A stretch of 52,958 nucleotides of DNA from IMG/VR virus record IMGVR_UViG_3300025134_000002, positions 1-52,958 of that record; one strand, given 5' to 3'. The DNA is from a virus (taxonomy: Duplodnaviria > Caudoviricetes). The notes beneath the pieces are model-generated. The model had not been told where the DNA came from, ran no database searches, and saw nothing but the letters and a program-made list of their open reading frames with translations. Position 1 is the first letter of the stretch, and every line of letters begins with the position of its first letter. This document shows positions 4,769 to 33,013 of this stretch, one piece after another. Position numbers and translations under genes: made by a program.

Positions 4769-5801
4769 GGAATGCCGGCCTCCGGAGCGGCGATGGCGGA
4801 TGCATCGGTCGACTGTAGATCTCCTGCAGCGCCGCTCTCTCCTCCGGCGTGCATGTGATGACCTCAAGCGGCTCTGAAGTGGGTAGCGAATGGTGGCTGC
4901 TGCGTGCCCAAGCCGGTGGATTAGCCGCGTTTTTAAGCCAATTCCCGTAGGTGAGCACCCAGCTCTTCACCTTCGTCTTGTGGCTTCGTTTCCATTCGAC
5001 GCAGTCATACGCCGCGTTGACCGGGTGGATCGTGATACCCTTCTTCTCTGCTTCCGGTATCCATTCAGCGAGCTTCCTGGCAATGCCAGCGACATTCTCA
5101 GGCAATAACTCCATTGGATACGGTGTCGACTTGTCGGCAAAAATGACGGCTATGTCGCGCGCGGTGCCACTACCGTTCGGAGGAATCAGAGGTCGTTCTT
5201 TGATCGGCGGAATGGATTCCTCATCCTGCCTCGCGCGCGCTACCTCAGTGTTAGTAATAGCGACAGAATCGTTAGAACCGATAGTGGTAGTGTTCGGTAG
5301 GGTACTGTACGGTAGGGTACGGTTGGGTACGGTAGCGGGTGCACGTGCTGGTAACGTGTCCTGCACGTTACCAGCACGTGCACTGTACGCATCCTCTATA
5401 AAGGAAGAGTTTGACCCATCAGGCGTTTCCTCATGATGATGGGCGGTCGATTTTGCACGGCGCTGACGCATGCGCTCGGCATTCGCCTTGCGCTGCTCTA
5501 CGAGTTTGCCGGCGTAATCCCACCAGTCGTGGAGACTCATTGCCTCTGATGAGCGGTCTATCCAGCCCGCCTGAATGAGCGCCTCGACAAATTTATCGGG
5601 GTCCCCATGCCAGCGAGCTCCGTAGGCTACCTCATCTGACGTAAAGTCCGTTAAGTCGCCGTCCTCCGCATAGCTAATCGCCCAATGCCAGAGGACGTGA
5701 AGATGACCGAGCATGAGTATGACGTCAATGTCCAAGATCTTCGCGGCGCGGCGTGTCTTCGGATGGTCGATGAGGTTCTGATGCGACTCGATCCAGGCCA
5801 T
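4758..5801 (-). CDS. phage replication initiator / replisome organiser
   Basis: MAWIESHQ..HPKT..GHLHVLWHWA..LHDWWDY..NAERMRQRR N-terminus; directly upstream of DnaB; internal DNA repeats. Confidence 0.75.
   Translation of the reverse strand: MAWIESHQNLIDHPKTRRAAKILDIDVILMLGHLHVLWHWAISYAEDGDLTDFTSDEVAYGARWHGDPDKFVEALIQAGWIDRSSEAMSLHDWWDYAGKLVEQRKANAERMRQRRAKSTAHHHEETPDGSNSSFIEDAYSARAGNVQDTLPARAPATVPNRTLPYSTLPNTTTIGSNDSVAITNTEVARARQDEESIPPIKERPLIPPNGSGTARDIAVIFADKSTPYPMELLPENVAGIARKLAEWIPEAEKKGITIHPVNAAYDCVEWKRSHKTKVKSWVLTYGNWLKNAANPPAWARSSHHSLPTSEPLEVITCTPEERAALQEIYSRPMHPPSPLRRPAFHDS
5290..5383. other. probable replication origin inside initiator gene
   Basis: GGT(A/T)GGGTAC direct repeats, then perfect 20-bp inverted repeat 5339-5358/5364-5383 with 5-nt spacer. 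Confidence 0.6.
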
Positions 5802-6325
5802 TAACTCGCCCACTTTCTGCGATTACATGGACGGCACAGGACCTGGAGATTATCAGGCTCATTGCTCTCGCCGCGAACAATAGGAATGATATGGTCAATC
5901 TCGAGATGGTCCGTTGAGCCGCACTGCCGACATCTATGACTATCGCGTTCGAGAATTCTTGGACGAAGCAAATGGCGTGCACGATCCCACGGTGCTCTCA
6001 TCCACCGATTCACGCTGTACCGCTGATCTCTCCTCCACCGCACCGGATCAAACTGGATGGCCTTCTCTTCCTGATTCCATGTGATAAGGCCTAGTTTATC
6101 CATCGCGAGAAGCGCTCCGTATACATCCTGCTCCTCTTTGTCCCGTCGACCCGGGATTACCCGGCGCAAGATTTCGGATGGAGAGCCGTGTAGCGAACCG
6201 CCAGCAGTACAATGTGGGATCATCCAGGTATAGAGCAGTACGGCAAAACAACCGTGATTCCGAGCGAGAGCAGTGACTTGGACGTCGGTTGAAAGGTCGG
6301 TGCTAATAAACCGCCTGCGGCTCAT
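5801..6325 (-). CDS. initiator-like N-terminal domain fused to HNH endonuclease
   Basis: ILERDSHRCRQCG..LEIDHIIP..GESNEPDNLQVLCRPCNRRK; start 6325 supported by TGATG overlap. Confidence 0.85.
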   Translation of the reverse strand: MSRRRFISTDLSTDVQVTALARNHGCFAVLLYTWMIPHCTAGGSLHGSPSEILRRVIPGRRDKEEQDVYGALLAMDKLGLITWNQEEKAIQFDPVRWRRDQRYSVNRWMRAPWDRARHLLRPRILERDSHRCRQCGSTDHLEIDHIIPIVRGESNEPDNLQVLCRPCNRRKWAS

Positions 6326-6516
6326 CAGATCCCCACTTTCTGCAGCCGTGGATGCGGCGCGATACCCCGCTCCCACGGCTGCAGCGTCAACCAACATCCT
6401 GGACAGAGGATGCTTCCGTCGTAGCGTCCATGCTCTCTGCCGGGCACAATCCGATGCAGGCACACATGGCAGCGCTTCTGCGGTGGCGTCTTCTTGACCG
6501 TCGTCCGAGTAGTCAT
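6325..6516 (-). CDS. small Zn-finger protein
   Basis: CHVC..CPGC; stop/start overlaps at both ends. Confidence 0.55.
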   Translation of the reverse strand: MTTRTTVKKTPPQKRCHVCLHRIVPGREHGRYDGSILCPGCWLTLQPWERGIAPHPRLQKVGI

Positions 6517-6857
6517 AGTCCAAGTCCCTCAAAGGCGCGTGCCGCCGCTTCCTGTCCGAAGTAGTCGTTCGCGGATATTACCTCGCGAAGTTGGCGGAAG
6601 TTGGTGTCATACGCATTGGCTACGCAGGCCATGGCATGCCTGTCTATTTCGTCCCTGTTTGCTCCATCGAATCTGTGTCCCAAATATCGAGCAACGATGC
6701 CGATGGCGCAGTGAAATTCCGTGCCATGTGGATCGATGTAGCGGACTGAACCGGGTAGCCACCTACCGTTCGGCCACATCCTCAGCAGTTCTGACGGATT
6801 CAATTCCGTTGCCGGTATCTGCTCCGTTGTCGGTCGTTCCTCGATTTGAATTACCAT
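6513..6857 (-). CDS. hypothetical protein
   Basis: TGATG coupling to upstream gene. Confidence 0.6.
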   Translation of the reverse strand: MVIQIEERPTTEQIPATELNPSELLRMWPNGRWLPGSVRYIDPHGTEFHCAIGIVARYLGHRFDGANRDEIDRHAMACVANAYDTNFRQLREVISANDYFGQEAAARAFEGLGL

Positions 6858-28368: not shown

Positions 28369-29061
28369 TCAGTCCTCCGTGTCTAGGCATTTCCAAGTCT
28401 TGCGCCTTATGAGTTGATCGATGCAGGCTGGACTGACGCCGCAATCTTGAGCCAGTTGCGATCTTGTTCGGGTTCCCGCTTGATATTGCACAAGAGCTTT
28501 GCGCGCCAATGTCGCCGTGAGTTTCCTGTTCTGATTCTTGTCGCCCGACCGCTCCGAACCTCGTCCCCACATGCCGTTCCTTGAGCCCGCTGCCATACGA
28601 TGCTTTCGGGCTGCATCTGCCATATTGTCTGCCGCAGTTCCCAGAAACAAATGGCTGGTGCGGACGCAGAGTCGATTATCGCAGTGGTGGCAGACGAACT
28701 GGCCGTCTGGGACCGGGCCGTTGCAGAGTATCCAAGAGAAGCGATGCGCGAAGTATTGCTTGCCGCCCTTCCTGCCAGAGCCCGAATAGACGTGGAATCG
28801 GCCATAGCCTAGTGGCGTTTGGCGACCCGTCCAGACCCAGCACTCTCCCGACTTATCAACGTAGGACCAGAACCGAGCCTCAGGCGTAAGGCCGCGCCAA
28901 CGTTCAGGCCTGGGCATAGGCGGGCGGATGCGGGGGTAGTGATAATTGATATAGCGGACGAACTGACCCTTGATGTGGCCGTAACGCGCATCATCATTGG
29001 TGGCAATGCGCGTGCGCCCACCACACCCGCAGCCACAGTATCCGTACGGAATAGAATCCAT
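28369..29061 (-). CDS. free-standing HNH homing endonuclease
   Basis: CGCGCG N-terminus, [46 protein letters not shown]; C-terminal HTH; GAGGAGG RBS. Confidence 0.92.
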
Positions 29062-29175
29062 CGTAAGTAACCTCCTCGTTAGGTTGCTTGCCACGCCTCG
29101 GGTGTTTACGCACGCCGAGGCACTTCTATTGGACGAAATTACGCTTGTTCCCTGAGTCCCGTATAAGGAGCCATC

Positions 29176-29619
29176 ATGGCGCTTGAAAAAGCCTATCCCG
29201 GTAGCGGAACCGAGGCAATTGAGGTCGTCAACGTCGATCCGGTGACCGGCGCGACCGTTGGGCCCGGCCAGCCTTCCGCGGCGACCGTCTATGTGCTGCC
29301 GAGCGCGGCACAAACTGTGACGCTCGTAACGGCTGATCTCGCAGTTGCCACCTACCGCGAGCTTCAGCTCCTCGTGAACGTGAGCGCTGTTAGTGGCACG
29401 ACGCCATCCATGACGCTGACGCTCGATAGCAAAGGCGCCGACGGCGTGTACTACACCGTCTACACCAGCAGCGCGATTACGGCAGCCGGCAAGACGCTTG
29501 CTCATATCGGCGTCGGCGCTGCCACGAACGTCGCGTTTGGTAGCACCGTTCGCCTGACCGCGACCATCAGTGGAACGGCGCCGTCATTCACGATGAGTGC
29601 ATCGCTCATCGGCAAGTGA
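29176..29619 (+). CDS. probable virion structural protein (Thr/Ala/Val-rich beta protein)
   Basis: AAGGAG RBS; composition; head module. Confidence 0.65.
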
Positions 29620-30286: not shown

Positions 30287-31060
30287 ATGGCAGATGATGC
30301 CGATGTGACCAAGGACCAGGAGTCTGCGGACACGGATACCGACACCGAAGAGAGTAAAACTCCCCCGCCTACCGAAGAGAAGACAGAGCGCACTGAATCC
30401 GAATCGAAGGCTCGCAAACCGTCACGAGCAGTTTCCAAGACGGAGATTGTTCCTGATGTACCCGCGGACTCAGAGGACAAGGTGTCCGATGACAAGACGC
30501 CGGAGGACGAGGAGCCATTCGACAAGGGTCGCGCGCTCAAGACCATCCAGAAGCTACGCGAGTTCGAGAAGCAAGCGAAAGAGCAGGCTCGGCGTCTTGC
30601 GGACTATGAGAAGCGCGAACGCGAGGCGGAAGAAGCCGCGATGAGCGAGCGCGACCGGTTAGCAGCCCAACTCAAGCGAGCAGAGGCAGAGCTGAAGTTC
30701 GCGCAGGAGTCGGCGCGCGACACGCAGAATCACCACGAGGTCGAACGCTTGGCTACTCGCCTGAACATCGTCGACCCGGAGGCTGCGGTCAAGCTCCTCG
30801 ACTGGGGAAGTCTCGACTACGACGATGACGGCAGGCCACAAGACGTCGAAAAGGCGCTCAAGACACTGATTCACGACAAACCCTATCTGCTGAAGGACGC
30901 GGGACGTACGTCGAATACGAGTACGGGCAATCCAGCAACGCGGAGTAGCGCGCCAGGTCAGCGGATGTACACCATGGCCGAGATCAACGACTACCAGTTC
31001 TATTCGAAAAACCGTGAGGACATCAAGCGCGCCTACACGGAGGGACGAATTATCGAGTAG
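30287..31060 (+). CDS. capsid scaffolding protein
   Basis: Acidic disordered N-terminus, coiled coil, DKPYLLK; AGGAGG RBS; directly upstream of capsid. Confidence 0.85.
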   Translation: MADDADVTKDQESADTDTDTEESKTPPPTEEKTERTESESKARKPSRAVSKTEIVPDVPADSEDKVSDDKTPEDEEPFDKGRALKTIQKLREFEKQAKEQARRLADYEKREREAEEAAMSERDRLAAQLKRAEAELKFAQESARDTQNHHEVERLATRLNIVDPEAAVKLLDWGSLDYDDDGRPQDVEKALKTLIHDKPYLLKDAGRTSNTSTGNPATRSSAPGQRMYTMAEINDYQFYSKNREDIKRAYTEGRIIE

Positions 31061-31084: not shown

Positions 31085-31120
31085 ACCTCCCAATGTCAGG
31101 ACGATGTCGGGAGGTTTTTT
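31085..31120 (+). terminator. terminator-like hairpin between scaffold and capsid genes
   Basis: ACCTCCC..GGGAGGT followed by T5. Confidence 0.5.
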
Positions 31121-31143
31121 CACGTTCCTAGGAGACATTTGAC

Positions 31144-31191
31144 ATGGCCGACATCAAGTTGACCACGGCTGATACCGCTGGATTTATCCCT
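31144..31191 (+). CDS. major capsid protein, exon 1 (MADIKLTTADTAGFIP)
   Basis: AGGAG RBS; 16 codons ending in T at the P1 U-G pair; joins in frame to 31865. Confidence 0.88.
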
Positions 31192-31864
31192 TGGTAAGAC
31201 CGTCCATTTCTGGCTTCTGTAAGCCAAATATGAGATAATTGGGGGATGTAAAACTAGGCTCAAATGCTGGGACTTCCTAAAGCCTCGCCACTCATTAGGT
31301 AACAGTGCGACGGATGCAACAATGGACAATCAGCAGCGTAAGACAGAGATCGACCTCGCCTGGCTAGGCGGGTTTCTCGACGGCGAAGGATGCTTACACC
31401 TACGAAAGCAGGTGGGCGCACGCCTTAGAGCGATGGGTAAGGTATACTACCGTCCGACCCTTCGCATCTGTAATACCCACGAACCGACGCTCCAGGTCGT
31501 TCGCAGAATCTTTGAAGCGAATGGCTTCCCCTGCCACGTCTCACACCGCGATTACGACAACATTAATCCGTCGTATAAGCGGGCCTGGGACGTTGAGGTA
31601 AGCGGCATTAAGCGTATGGCTCGGATATTGCCCGTCCTGATCCCGTATCTACATACCAAGCGAGAGCAAGCGGAAACGATGTTGGAGTTCTGTGAATCGC
31701 GCTTGTCGAAAGCGCCATCGGCTCCCCTGACGGAGCACGAGACTGCGCTTCTCCGCACGTTCCGACCGAGTCTCTGATCGCTCACAGACTACACGCCTAG
31801 CTAGCCTCGTTATGGCTAGATGGTATAGTCGGGCCTTCGGTGAAAGCCGAGGGATGCCCAGGCG
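31192..31864 (+). mobile_element. group I self-splicing intron (673 nt)
   Basis: IGS ATTGGGGGAT 31238-31247; P3 CTAGGC/GCCTAG; P AAATGCTGGGA, Q AATCAGCAG, R TCACAGACTAC, S ATGGTATAGTC; P8; P9 with GAAA; terminal G. Confidence 0.93.
31322..31777 (+). CDS. intron-encoded single-motif LAGLIDADG homing endonuclease
   Basis: LAWLGGFLDGEG; PYLHTKREQA; lies between Q and R elements. Confidence 0.92.
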   Translation: MDNQQRKTEIDLAWLGGFLDGEGCLHLRKQVGARLRAMGKVYYRPTLRICNTHEPTLQVVRRIFEANGFPCHVSHRDYDNINPSYKRAWDVEVSGIKRMARILPVLIPYLHTKREQAETMLEFCESRLSKAPSAPLTEHETALLRTFRPSL

Positions 31865-32962
31865 CAATACTGGGCCAACCGTGCCCTTGACGTACTGCGT
31901 CAACAAATAGTCCTCGCCAATGTTGTTGCGAAAGACGTGGACTTCGGCGAGGTGGGATGGCAGGGCAAATCAATCACCGTGCCGTATCCCGGCACCTTTT
32001 CGGCGGTTGACAAATCCGCCGATACTCCCGTCACGCCGCAAGTGCCGGTCGGCGGCAATAGCGTGACGTTGACGCTCAGCAAGCACAAAGTGGTTCCGTT
32101 CCTGGTTGAGGACTTCGGCGCCGCGCAGGCCAATATGGCGCTGATGGACCGGTACCTGGAACCCGCCGTCATCGGCATCGCGGAGCAGTTCGAGCTCGAC
32201 CTGTGGATGACCGCCATGACCGCCGGCTCGATCGCCGCAATCGGCACGGTTGGCAGCGACATGACCTCCACGACAGTCCGACTCGCCAACCGCCGACTCA
32301 ATGAGGCGAAATCTCCGGTCTCCAACCGATCGCTGGTCGTGTCGCCGAAGGATCAGATGGGTATCCTGGGTGACACCAATCTGGCCAGCTTCTTCGCATA
32401 CTCTCAGCCGGACAGCGTCCGTAACGGTCAGTTCGGACGCCTCTACGGATTCGATGCGTACTGGTCGCAGATGGCTCCGCTTGGGTACAACGTCGCTCAG
32501 GCGGCCGCCTCGACGTATACGTTTAATGCGCAAACGACCGCGAGCGTCCCGACCGCCGGTCTGACCGCTGCGGTCCTGCAGGCGGCGCTCGTAGGGCTGT
32601 CCTCGGTGGGTACGGGCGGCGTCGTGGTCAGCGGCCCCGCCGGCGGGCCGTTCAACGTAGTCTTCACCCCGACCATCGACGCCACCGGCACCCTTACGGC
32701 TTCGACGGCGACCATTTCTGCGCATACGCAGACCAATATCGCGCTCCATCGGGATGCGGTCATGTTTGCCGTCCGCCCCTTCCCACAGACCCCGTTCGCC
32801 GCAGGCGTGTACACCGCGCAGGCCAACGACCCTGAATCGGGCCTCTCCATTCGGATATCGGCCCAATACGACATCAATAATATCGGTGTCCGGGTCAACC
32901 TGGACATGCTCTACGGCGTGCAGGTACTACGCCCGACCCTTGCGGTGATCATCGAGGCATAA
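31865..32962 (+). CDS. major capsid protein, exon 2 (P22-coat-like; spliced product 381 aa)
   Basis: QYWANRALDVLR..GKSITVP..RSLVVSP..GQFGRLYGFD..DMLYGVQVLRP; frame open from 31865. Confidence 0.9.
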   Translation, partial: QYWANRALDVLRQQIVLANVVAKDVDFGEVGWQGKSITVPYPGTFSAVDKSADTPVTPQVPVGGNSVTLTLSKHKVVPFLVEDFGAAQANMALMDRYLEPAVIGIAEQFELDLWMTAMTAGSIAAIGTVGSDMTSTTVRLANRRLNEAKSPVSNRSLVVSPKDQMGILGDTNLASFFAYSQPDSVRNGQFGRLYGFDAYWSQMAPLGYNVAQAAASTYTFNAQTTASVPTAGLTAAVLQAALVGLSSVGTGGVVVSGPAGGPFNVVFTPTIDATGTLTASTATISAHTQTNIALHRDAVMFAVRPFPQTPFAAGVYTAQANDPESGLSIRISAQYDINNIGVRVNLDMLYGVQVLRPTLAVIIEA

Positions 32963-32978
32963 TCGTCTCGCATGGAAG

Positions 32979-33013
32979 AAAAGGAGGGCGGTCGGGATGA
33001 CCGCCCTCCTTTT
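32979..33013 (+). terminator. intrinsic (bidirectional) terminator after capsid gene
   Basis: AAAAGGAGGGCGGTC-GGGAT-GACCGCCCTCCTTTT. Confidence 0.85.

Follow-up and report, generated by a model that had tools for sequence, protein, structure and literature searches.

A probable mobile group I intron encoding a LAGLIDADG endonuclease in the major capsid gene of a siphovirus-like phage

How can a phage make its coat protein if the major capsid reading frame runs into a stop shortly after its sixteenth codon? The question is raised by IMG/VR virus record IMGVR_UViG_3300025134_000002, a linear sequence of 52,958 bases with a G+C content of 59.5%, which was analysed in its entirety and is called the window here. 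We conclude that the major capsid gene of this siphovirus-like phage is interrupted, at positions 31192-31864, by what is very probably a mobile group I intron. A preliminary description made from the letters of the DNA had read the locus as a capsid gene into which a complete group I intron with a LAGLIDADG open reading frame (ORF) is inserted, and the capsid profiles, the homologues of the splice junction, the covariation of the RNA helices, and the profile and fold comparisons of the ORF all agree with it.

The capsid gene, which like every part of the locus is on the plus strand, has the ribosome-binding site AGGAG (31131-31135) 8 nucleotides (nt) 5' of an ATG at 31144. Exon 1 (31144-31191) consists of 16 codons, MADIKLTTADTAGFIP, and ends in U; its final 7 nt (31185-31191) serve as the exon side of helix P1. 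It is followed by TGG TAA, the in-frame UAA at 31195-31197 being inside the insert. Exon 2 (31865-32962), which starts QYWANRALDVLR, has 365 codons and a stop, and encodes a P22-type coat protein. It matches the Pfam family P22_CoatProtein (PF11651) at 67.9 bits (cut-off 24; E 9.3e-19) from profile position 11, and the PHROGs family phrog_283, "major head protein", at E 3.2e-41 over positions 10-381 of 385. Because these matches begin at position 10-11, about ten N-terminal profile positions are missing from exon 2. Removal of the 673-nt insert joins CCT to CAA and gives a protein of 16 + 365 = 381 residues. The ribosome-binding site, start codon, 16 codons, TGG TAA and open second exon up to 32962 all lie where the preliminary description had put them.

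That description had also proposed that excision of 31192-31864 restores a capsid N-terminus, and homologues agree. A protein-collection search with exon 2 found 68 relatives, 18 of which were retrieved, and 15 of the 18 have an unbroken N-terminus of the form GFIP-x-x-W-A-x-RALDVLR. The exceptions are P0001 (336 residues), which is the truncated call of the window gene itself, and two N-terminally short calls (P0010 and P0045). The proteins P0003, P0004 and P0016, at 58-59% identity, start with MADIKLT, then T or N, then ADTSGFIPQYWANRALDVLR, which corresponds to exon 1 plus exon 2 of the window with one or two exon-1 residues different. Since 15 homologues read through it unbroken, we consider the junction of CCT with CAA to be correct. 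Cutting after T31191 and after G31864 is the only choice that gives exon 1 a terminal U and the insert a terminal G. The predicted ligated RNA reads TTTATCCCT followed directly by CAATACTGG, the protein junction would be FIP-QYW, and the peptide predicted across it is LTTADTAGFIPQYWANR.

Relatives of the element were gathered with an alignment of seven endonuclease homologues, giving 80 viral loci (L001-L080) out of 285 candidates and 80 genomic loci (L081-L160) out of 107, the best in each case by likeness to the capsid-resident endonuclease. The arrangement of the window recurs in 27 of the 160 loci: a motif AAUCAGCAG, which we take to be the Q-like element of group I introns, falls on ORF codons 3-5, and an R-like element, UCA-N-N-GACUA, follows 400-490 nt downstream. 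Two alignments were built without the window, one of 20 loci for the region 5' of the ORF and one of 21 loci for the region 3' of it, and these yielded the covariance models R1 and R2, respectively. A whole-intron MAFFT alignment was discarded for the counting of pairs, as P3 was one column out of register in the window, L002 and L006; P3 and P6 were counted by script instead.

Each model has a single match in both strands of the 52,958 bases, R1 at 31250-31339 (69.7 bits, E 6.4e-16) and R2 at 31779-31869 (57.5 bits, E 2.1e-16). Unguided folding of the upstream alignment with RNAalifold produced P4, P5 and P5a, with compensatory changes in 12 of 19 pairs, and the downstream alignment produced P7, P8 and P9, with compensatory changes in 11 of 17 pairs. 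P3, the strands of which lie on either side of the ORF, is fully paired (6/6) in 19 of 22 sequences despite 19 different strand sequences; when strands from different sequences are crossed, full pairing is found in 55 of 462 combinations. P1 also covaries between guide and exon, being UAUCCCU/GGGGAUG in the window and L009, CAGCCCU/GGGGCUG in L002 and CACCGAU/GUCGGUG in L027. In all four the splice site has a U.G pair and the guide stands immediately 5' of UAAAA and P3.

The elements of a group I intron can be followed through the insert from the 5' splice site to its terminal G31864. P1 pairs UAUCCCU (31185-31191) with GGGGAUG (31242-31248) in 7 base pairs (bp), with U31191.G31242 at the splice site. 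The internal guide sequence (31238-31248) consists of AUUG for P10 and then GGGGAUG for P1; AUUG (31238-31241) can form 4 bp with CAAU (31865-31868) at the start of exon 2, and the counterpart in L009 has 6 bp, GAUUUU/GAAAUC. The P1 loop, at 49 nt, holds a hairpin (31211-31226) in which TGGCTT (31211-31216) pairs with AAGCCA (31221-31226) around a CTGT loop in both the minimum-energy and the centroid folds, matching the long P1 extension with an extra stem that had been noted earlier. The P1 loops of the same-site relatives L002 and L009, and also that of L006, are short and have no extra hairpin. P2 is missing, the guide being followed by UAAAA and then by P3.

The 5' core domain (31250-31339), defined by the R1 match and the fold of the 20 relatives, contains J1/3, the 5' strand of P3, P4, P5 and P5a. 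P3 is formed by CTAGGC (31254-31259) and GCCTAG (31795-31800), P4 by 31265-31270 and 31330-31335, and P5 by 31275-31277 and 31324-31326, with P5a at about 31282-31313. P5 carries a motif, CCUAAAG...AAUGG, which to our eye resembles the 11-nt receptor for GAAA tetraloops. The 5' side of the P6 region (31336-31350) was read from the sequence with modest family support: GCG (31336-31338) pairs with CGC (31779-31781) in P6, and CAGAGAU (31344-31350) with GUCUCUG (31770-31776) in P6a.

The 3' core domain (31779-31864), defined by the R2 match and the fold of the 21 relatives, comprises the 3' strand of P6, the R element (31782-31791), P7, the 3' strand of P3, P8, P9 and a tail to G31864. In P7, C31785 and GACUA (31787-31791) pair with UAGUC-G (31826-31831), leaving A31786 bulged, and the strands GACUA and UAGUC are invariant in all 21 relatives. 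The G-C pair beside the bulged A is presumably the guanosine-binding site. P8 is formed by CTAGCC (31801-31806) and GGCTAG (31814-31819), and P9 by 31834-31841 and 31846-31853 with a GAAA loop (31842-31845). The P1, P10, P3, P7, P8, P9 with GAAA, and terminal G named in the preliminary description are thus each present.

The relatives with GCGA on P9 (L019, L057 and L082) have an altered P5 motif that lacks CYUAA and has no AUGG start there, in contrast to the other 19 aligned sequences. This co-change hints at covariation of a tertiary contact between L9 and its P5 receptor, seen in three sequences whose L9 loops were read by a script that mis-called several.

The P7.1 and P7.2 helices of IA2 introns sit between P7 and the 3' strand of P3. 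Because the gap there is only 3 nt in the window (CAC, 31792-31794), the intron has neither helix and is not of the IA type; the earlier statement that it lacks a P7.1 insert and is not IA2 therefore stands. According to a database paper on group I introns (PMC11835236), more than 50% of viral group I introns are IA2; a term search of that paper found no mention of capsids or phages.

A 151-residue ORF (31322-31777) with the motif LGGFLDGEG occupies the interior of the intron. Its nearest relatives in the protein collection are P0070 (76% identity) and P0071 (66%), and for the homologues P0073 and P0074 precomputed assignments to PF00961 and/or PF14528 exist. When a profile of 43 family members was compared with the Protein Data Bank, I-MsoI was found at E 8.6e-18, along with I-CvuI and chains derived from I-CreI. 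An AlphaFold2 model of the ORF has a mean pLDDT (predicted local distance difference test) of 94.3, and its top Foldseek matches are I-CreI, I-CvuI and I-MsoI, with E values of about 1e-7, template modelling (TM) scores of 0.60-0.67 and identities of 17-23%. In the 43-sequence alignment G17 and E22 never vary and D20, G21, G23 and K113 hardly do; E22, we assume, occupies the place of the catalytic Asp of I-CreI. The product thus has both hallmarks of the I-CreI type, a LAGLIDADG helix with a conserved acidic residue and the alpha-beta-beta-alpha-beta-beta-alpha fold. PHROGs labels the endonuclease family, phrog_5046, as "HNH endonuclease", whereas the profile and fold comparisons show LAGLIDADG instead. 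The ORF product is, by prediction from profile and model, a single-motif LAGLIDADG endonuclease like I-CreI and I-MsoI, in keeping with the preliminary description, and by analogy it would act as a dimer.

The ORF is interlaced with the ribozyme. Codons 1-5 overlap the 3' strand of P5, J5/4 and the 3' strand of P4, codons 5-10 overlap P6 and P6a, and the TGA stop overlaps the 3' strand of P6a. The preliminary description was right that the ORF starts within the catalytic core, the ATG (31322-31324) being part of the 3' strand of P5, where G31324 pairs with C31277. It was mistaken in having the ATG overlap Q: Q, with the 3' strand of P4, is codons 3-5, and the ATG is 6 nt 5' of it. Nearly all ORF homologues start with MDNQQ, a conservation that we attribute to the start codons doubling as strands of P5 and P4.

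Several results weigh against a group I intron that is complete and active. The preliminary description had suggested searching with a group I model in Infernal, and this did not turn out as hoped: the Rfam model is silent on the window at its gathering score, at E up to 10 over 31100-31950, and in a search of the whole record, and RF00028 matches none of the 20 ORF-carrying relatives. As the Rfam model is silent, assignment to group I depends on our own R1 and R2 models and on an indirect linkage. P6a has weak family support, the best stem averaging 7.4 bp within sequences and 6.1 bp between them (the best self stem in the window is 7 bp), and the local fold of P1 is little better than that of shuffled sequences (z -1.78; 8 of 200 shuffles equally good). 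The P9.0 of the preliminary description is possible and remains a candidate pairing: GGGC (31831-31834) and GCCC (31856-31859) exist as sequence and compete with C31834-G31853 and G31831-C31785. The Pfam model LAGLIDADG_1 scores 13.4 bits on the ORF, against a cut-off of 23.1 (E 0.15). Splicing, endonuclease activity and homing are things that we infer.

The indirect linkage is provided by introns in related loci that have no ORF. Where these are matched by R1 and/or R2 they exceed the RF00028 gathering score of 50 bits in L060 (92.2 and 73.9 bits), L042 (83.5), L017 (69.7, 54.5 and 53.2) and L043 (61.8), and in them R1 spans the P3-P6 part and R2 the P7-P9 part. Since relatives matched by R1 and R2 score on RF00028, the window element is tied to the curated group I family. 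The direct Rfam miss probably results from the 456-nt ORF in P6a.

If the intron is active, the late transcript would fold into the P1-P10 ribozyme, and free guanosine would attack after U31191, which is held in the U.G pair with G31242. The released exon 1 would then attack after G31864, joining CCT to CAA and giving the 381-residue coat protein. With a stop codon two codons into the intron, ribosomes may be kept from entering the catalytic core. The P9 loop, GAAA, is a probable docking partner for the receptor-like motif of P5. The endonuclease, produced from the P6a loop and probably a homodimer, would by analogy cut intron-less capsid alleles of co-infecting relatives, whereupon the intron would be copied in. 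The start codon of the endonuclease and a possible ribosome-binding site, GGA(U)G, lie inside the P5 and P5a helices, so that the ribozyme should fold at the expense of endonuclease translation, and vice versa.

The intron could instead have lost the ability to splice itself, leaving the coat protein dependent on a maturase or host factor or made in low yield. The missing direct Rfam match would fit such a dead or protein-dependent intron, as would a P1 loop unusually long at 49 nt beside the short ones of L002, L009 and L006, and some LAGLIDADG proteins act as maturases. We consider this improbable, given that the core helices, the bulged A and G-C pair of P7, the U.G pair and the terminal G are all intact, and that loss of splicing would be lethal, no second capsid gene having been found among the 34 ORFs scanned.

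It could also be proposed that no splicing occurs and that an endonuclease cassette has simply split the gene, with a shortened coat protein made from GTG 31937 or, as in P0001, from GTG 31952. Gene callers yield exactly P0001 with its 336 residues, and the ORF from GTG 31937 is open. However, the 72 nt at 31865-31936 encode QYWANRALDVLRQQIVLANVVAKD, in which eight columns (W19, A20, R22, A23, L24, D25, L27 and R28) are invariant in 13 capsid proteins. This argues against a start at GTG 31937, because those residues would go unexplained if the stretch were not translated. Exon 1, with its own ribosome-binding site, matches the first 16 residues of the homologues, and the RNA structure is conserved across relatives, so a split without splicing strikes us as very improbable. 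A mobile group I intron remains our explanation for the insert.

L002 and L009 have their intron at the same site as the window, after the Pro codon of F-x-P and before the next x-x-W, and none of 15 related capsid loci in IMG/VR has an intron there. One related locus, L161, has a capsid protein 50% identical and a homologous scaffold, and its site is intact, with GGCTTTGTGCCT running directly into CAATTTTGGGCCAACC. About 80 codons further on, after ...VPLTLD, it contains an ORF-less group I intron (L161:2761-2989; RF00028 50.8 bits, E 7.9e-12). Because that intron sits elsewhere in the gene while the site of the window is intact, related capsid genes appear to have been invaded at different sites. 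Such a patchy distribution, as read from these sequences, is as expected of a mobile element. No pseudo-palindromic target centred on the insertion site was seen by eye around the intron-less junction of L161.

The relatives are strongly associated with capsid genes. Flanks were chosen by a simple open-frame rule, and the counts include the near-duplicates L002/L003, L016/L022 and L021/L024. Among 36 viral loci with R1 and R2 matches around the ORF, 32 have a downstream flank that matches "major head protein" PHROGs (E up to 1e-5), with nine different PHROG families as the top match. Two further loci were assigned by the upstream flank, L042 firmly and L078 weakly, which brings the number in capsid genes to 34 of 36; neither flank was recognised in L025 and L045. 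L025 also contains four R1 and four R2 matches on one strand within 3.9 kb (L025:1108-4933), in a host gene that PHROGs does not recognise; the matches point to four consecutive introns of the family.

A capsid flank is also seen in 25 of the remaining 44 viral loci, so that a capsid gene is host or neighbour in 59 of the 80 viral loci overall. In at least seven of the 25 (L011, L012, L014, L020, L028, L065 and L079) the endonuclease is free-standing, just 5' of a whole capsid gene, and no R1 or R2 match was found in these seven. A scaffold-like gene (phrog_13678 or phrog_19777) lies upstream of the free-standing endonuclease in six of them, and L028 has no upstream flank to scan. The free-standing form may represent a stage before or after residence in an intron.

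The genomic loci include 12 with both R1 and R2 matches, of which seven are in capsid genes and none is in another recognised gene. The remaining genomic loci are mixed, with integrase-adjacent genes in candidate-phyla bacteria, double-motif proteins in archaea, and methyltransferases. In L091, L093, L101, L119, L129, L131 and L144, from Patescibacteria-type bins, the endonuclease relatives adjoin integrase-like phrog_1, and there is no R1 or R2 match.

As a control that does not depend on the endonuclease, IMG/VR was scanned for Q...R...S motifs at the spacing of ORF-less introns. Capsid genes were found in 3 of 77 control flanks; the others included genes for tail sheath, large terminase, ribonucleotide reductase, thymidylate synthase, RNA polymerase beta and many endonucleases. 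With only 3 of 77 in the control, the capsid association seems to be a property of the endonuclease-bearing lineage and not of phage group I introns generally. A full-text literature search found no paper naming a lineage of capsid-restricted introns with LAGLIDADG enzymes, although supplementary files might list such cases.

We are evenly divided on whether the window element belongs to a large, apparently undescribed lineage of capsid specialists that pairs one type of RNA with one type of endonuclease. We give the same middling credence to its proposed traits, namely an RNA with neither P2 nor P7.1/P7.2, in which P5 bears a receptor-like motif and P9 is capped by a GNRA loop, and an I-CreI-like enzyme whose MDNQQ start lies in P5 and P4. 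Members of the lineage in our sample are inserted at many different places in the genes of nine or more major-head-protein families, and for this reason something beyond one conserved target site would have to hold it in capsid genes. Candidate causes are an endonuclease specificity that has spread over the length of the gene, reverse splicing that targets the most plentiful late mRNA, and use as a weapon against co-infecting phages.

The kind of element is already known. The closest precedent is the mycobacteriophage LittleE (Cluster J), in which, according to Pope et al. 2013 (PMC3706429), the capsid gene has a group I-type intron that was shown to be spliced in the course of late expression. 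As in the window, the host is a siphovirus major capsid gene, exon 1 ends in U, the intron ends in G, and there is an I-CreI-related LAGLIDADG ORF. By the same account, the ORF of LittleE, gp14, is on the opposite strand and has 177 residues with an HNH-related C-terminal part, whereas that of the window shares the strand of the capsid gene and overlaps the core of the ribozyme. Compared by description, the capsid of LittleE is HK97-like with a delta domain, whereas that of the window is P22-type with a separate scaffold gene. The same paper cites a capsid intron in lactococcal phage Tuc2009, and Yutin et al. 2021 (PMC7886860) place group I introns in the capsid and other core genes of crAss-like phages. 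These cases, with up to four introns per gene, resemble the window in that group I introns interrupt phage capsid genes, but they belong to different phage groups and are likened here by description and not by RNA sequence. Jumbo phages are reported to have many small group I introns, chiefly in terL, nrdD and polymerase genes (PMC12880540). The preliminary description had called capsid-gene introns uncommon, which is contradicted by the LittleE precedent (PMC3706429) and by the 59 viral loci counted above. The window is a further case of an arrangement that is neither rare nor new.

The endonuclease and the layout of the intron have parallels outside capsid genes. Among the top profile and fold matches of the ORF, I-CreI, like its relatives I-MsoI and I-CvuI, is a single-motif LAGLIDADG enzyme of about 150-170 residues encoded in a group I intron. 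The I-CreI intron is in the chloroplast 23S rRNA gene of Chlamydomonas, and the introns of all three are in organellar rRNA genes, unlike that of the window, which is in a phage protein-coding gene. In the T4 td intron the ORF for I-TevI sits in a loop extending from P6, a stop codon closely follows the 5' splice site, and the translation signals of the ORF are buried in RNA structure, all of which has parallels in the window. In contrast, td belongs to subgroup IA2, with P7.1 and P7.2 and a GIY-YIG enzyme; in the window just 3 nt separate P7 from the 3' strand of P3, P2 is missing, and the enzyme is of the LAGLIDADG kind, with its first codons in P5 and P4.

The setting of the split gene is that of a tailed phage with an estimated completeness (CheckV) of 72%. 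By PHROGs, the minus strand has a replication module of helicase, replication initiator, HNH gene and methyltransferase, and the plus strand encodes ParB, a methyltransferase, the small and large terminase, the portal, the scaffold, the split capsid gene, a tape measure of 2,018 residues, and tail proteins. The source phage is siphovirus-like. The scaffolding protein gene (30287-31060, plus strand; Pfam PF06810, E 2.6e-11; phrog_194) is just 5' of the capsid gene. Against 50,697 phage records, blastn with 31100-31950 gave zero matches and tblastn gave distant matches only, at identities of at most 39% for exon 2 and 32% for the endonuclease ORF; by these comparisons a close relative is absent among the deposited phage genomes.

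Two HNH endonuclease genes are present on the minus strand of the window. One (5801-6532) is within the replication module. The other (28369-29505) is inside the head module between portal and scaffold, antisense to its neighbours; as listed, it overlaps a plus-strand ORF (29176-29619), and its true start is probably further in. Directly 3' of the capsid stop, at about 32968-33012, a G+C-rich inverted repeat seen by eye, AAAAGGAGGGCGGTC...GACCGCCCTCCTTTT, is followed by a T-rich stretch and resembles an intrinsic terminator.

The annotation of this record changes from the 336-residue product in the protein collection to a coat protein of 381 residues from two exons, and synthesis of the main virion protein would require RNA splicing. 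This class of element escapes the standard libraries: Rfam fails on the window and on 20 of 20 ORF-carrying relatives, Pfam stays below threshold, and PHROGs mislabels the enzyme as an "HNH endonuclease". Because standard tools miss the class, many uncultivated phages probably have capsid genes that are wrongly called as truncated. If the restriction to capsid genes is true, the lineage would offer a natural system for finding what confines a homing element to one class of genes, and for learning whether endonucleases that target capsid genes act in competition between phages.

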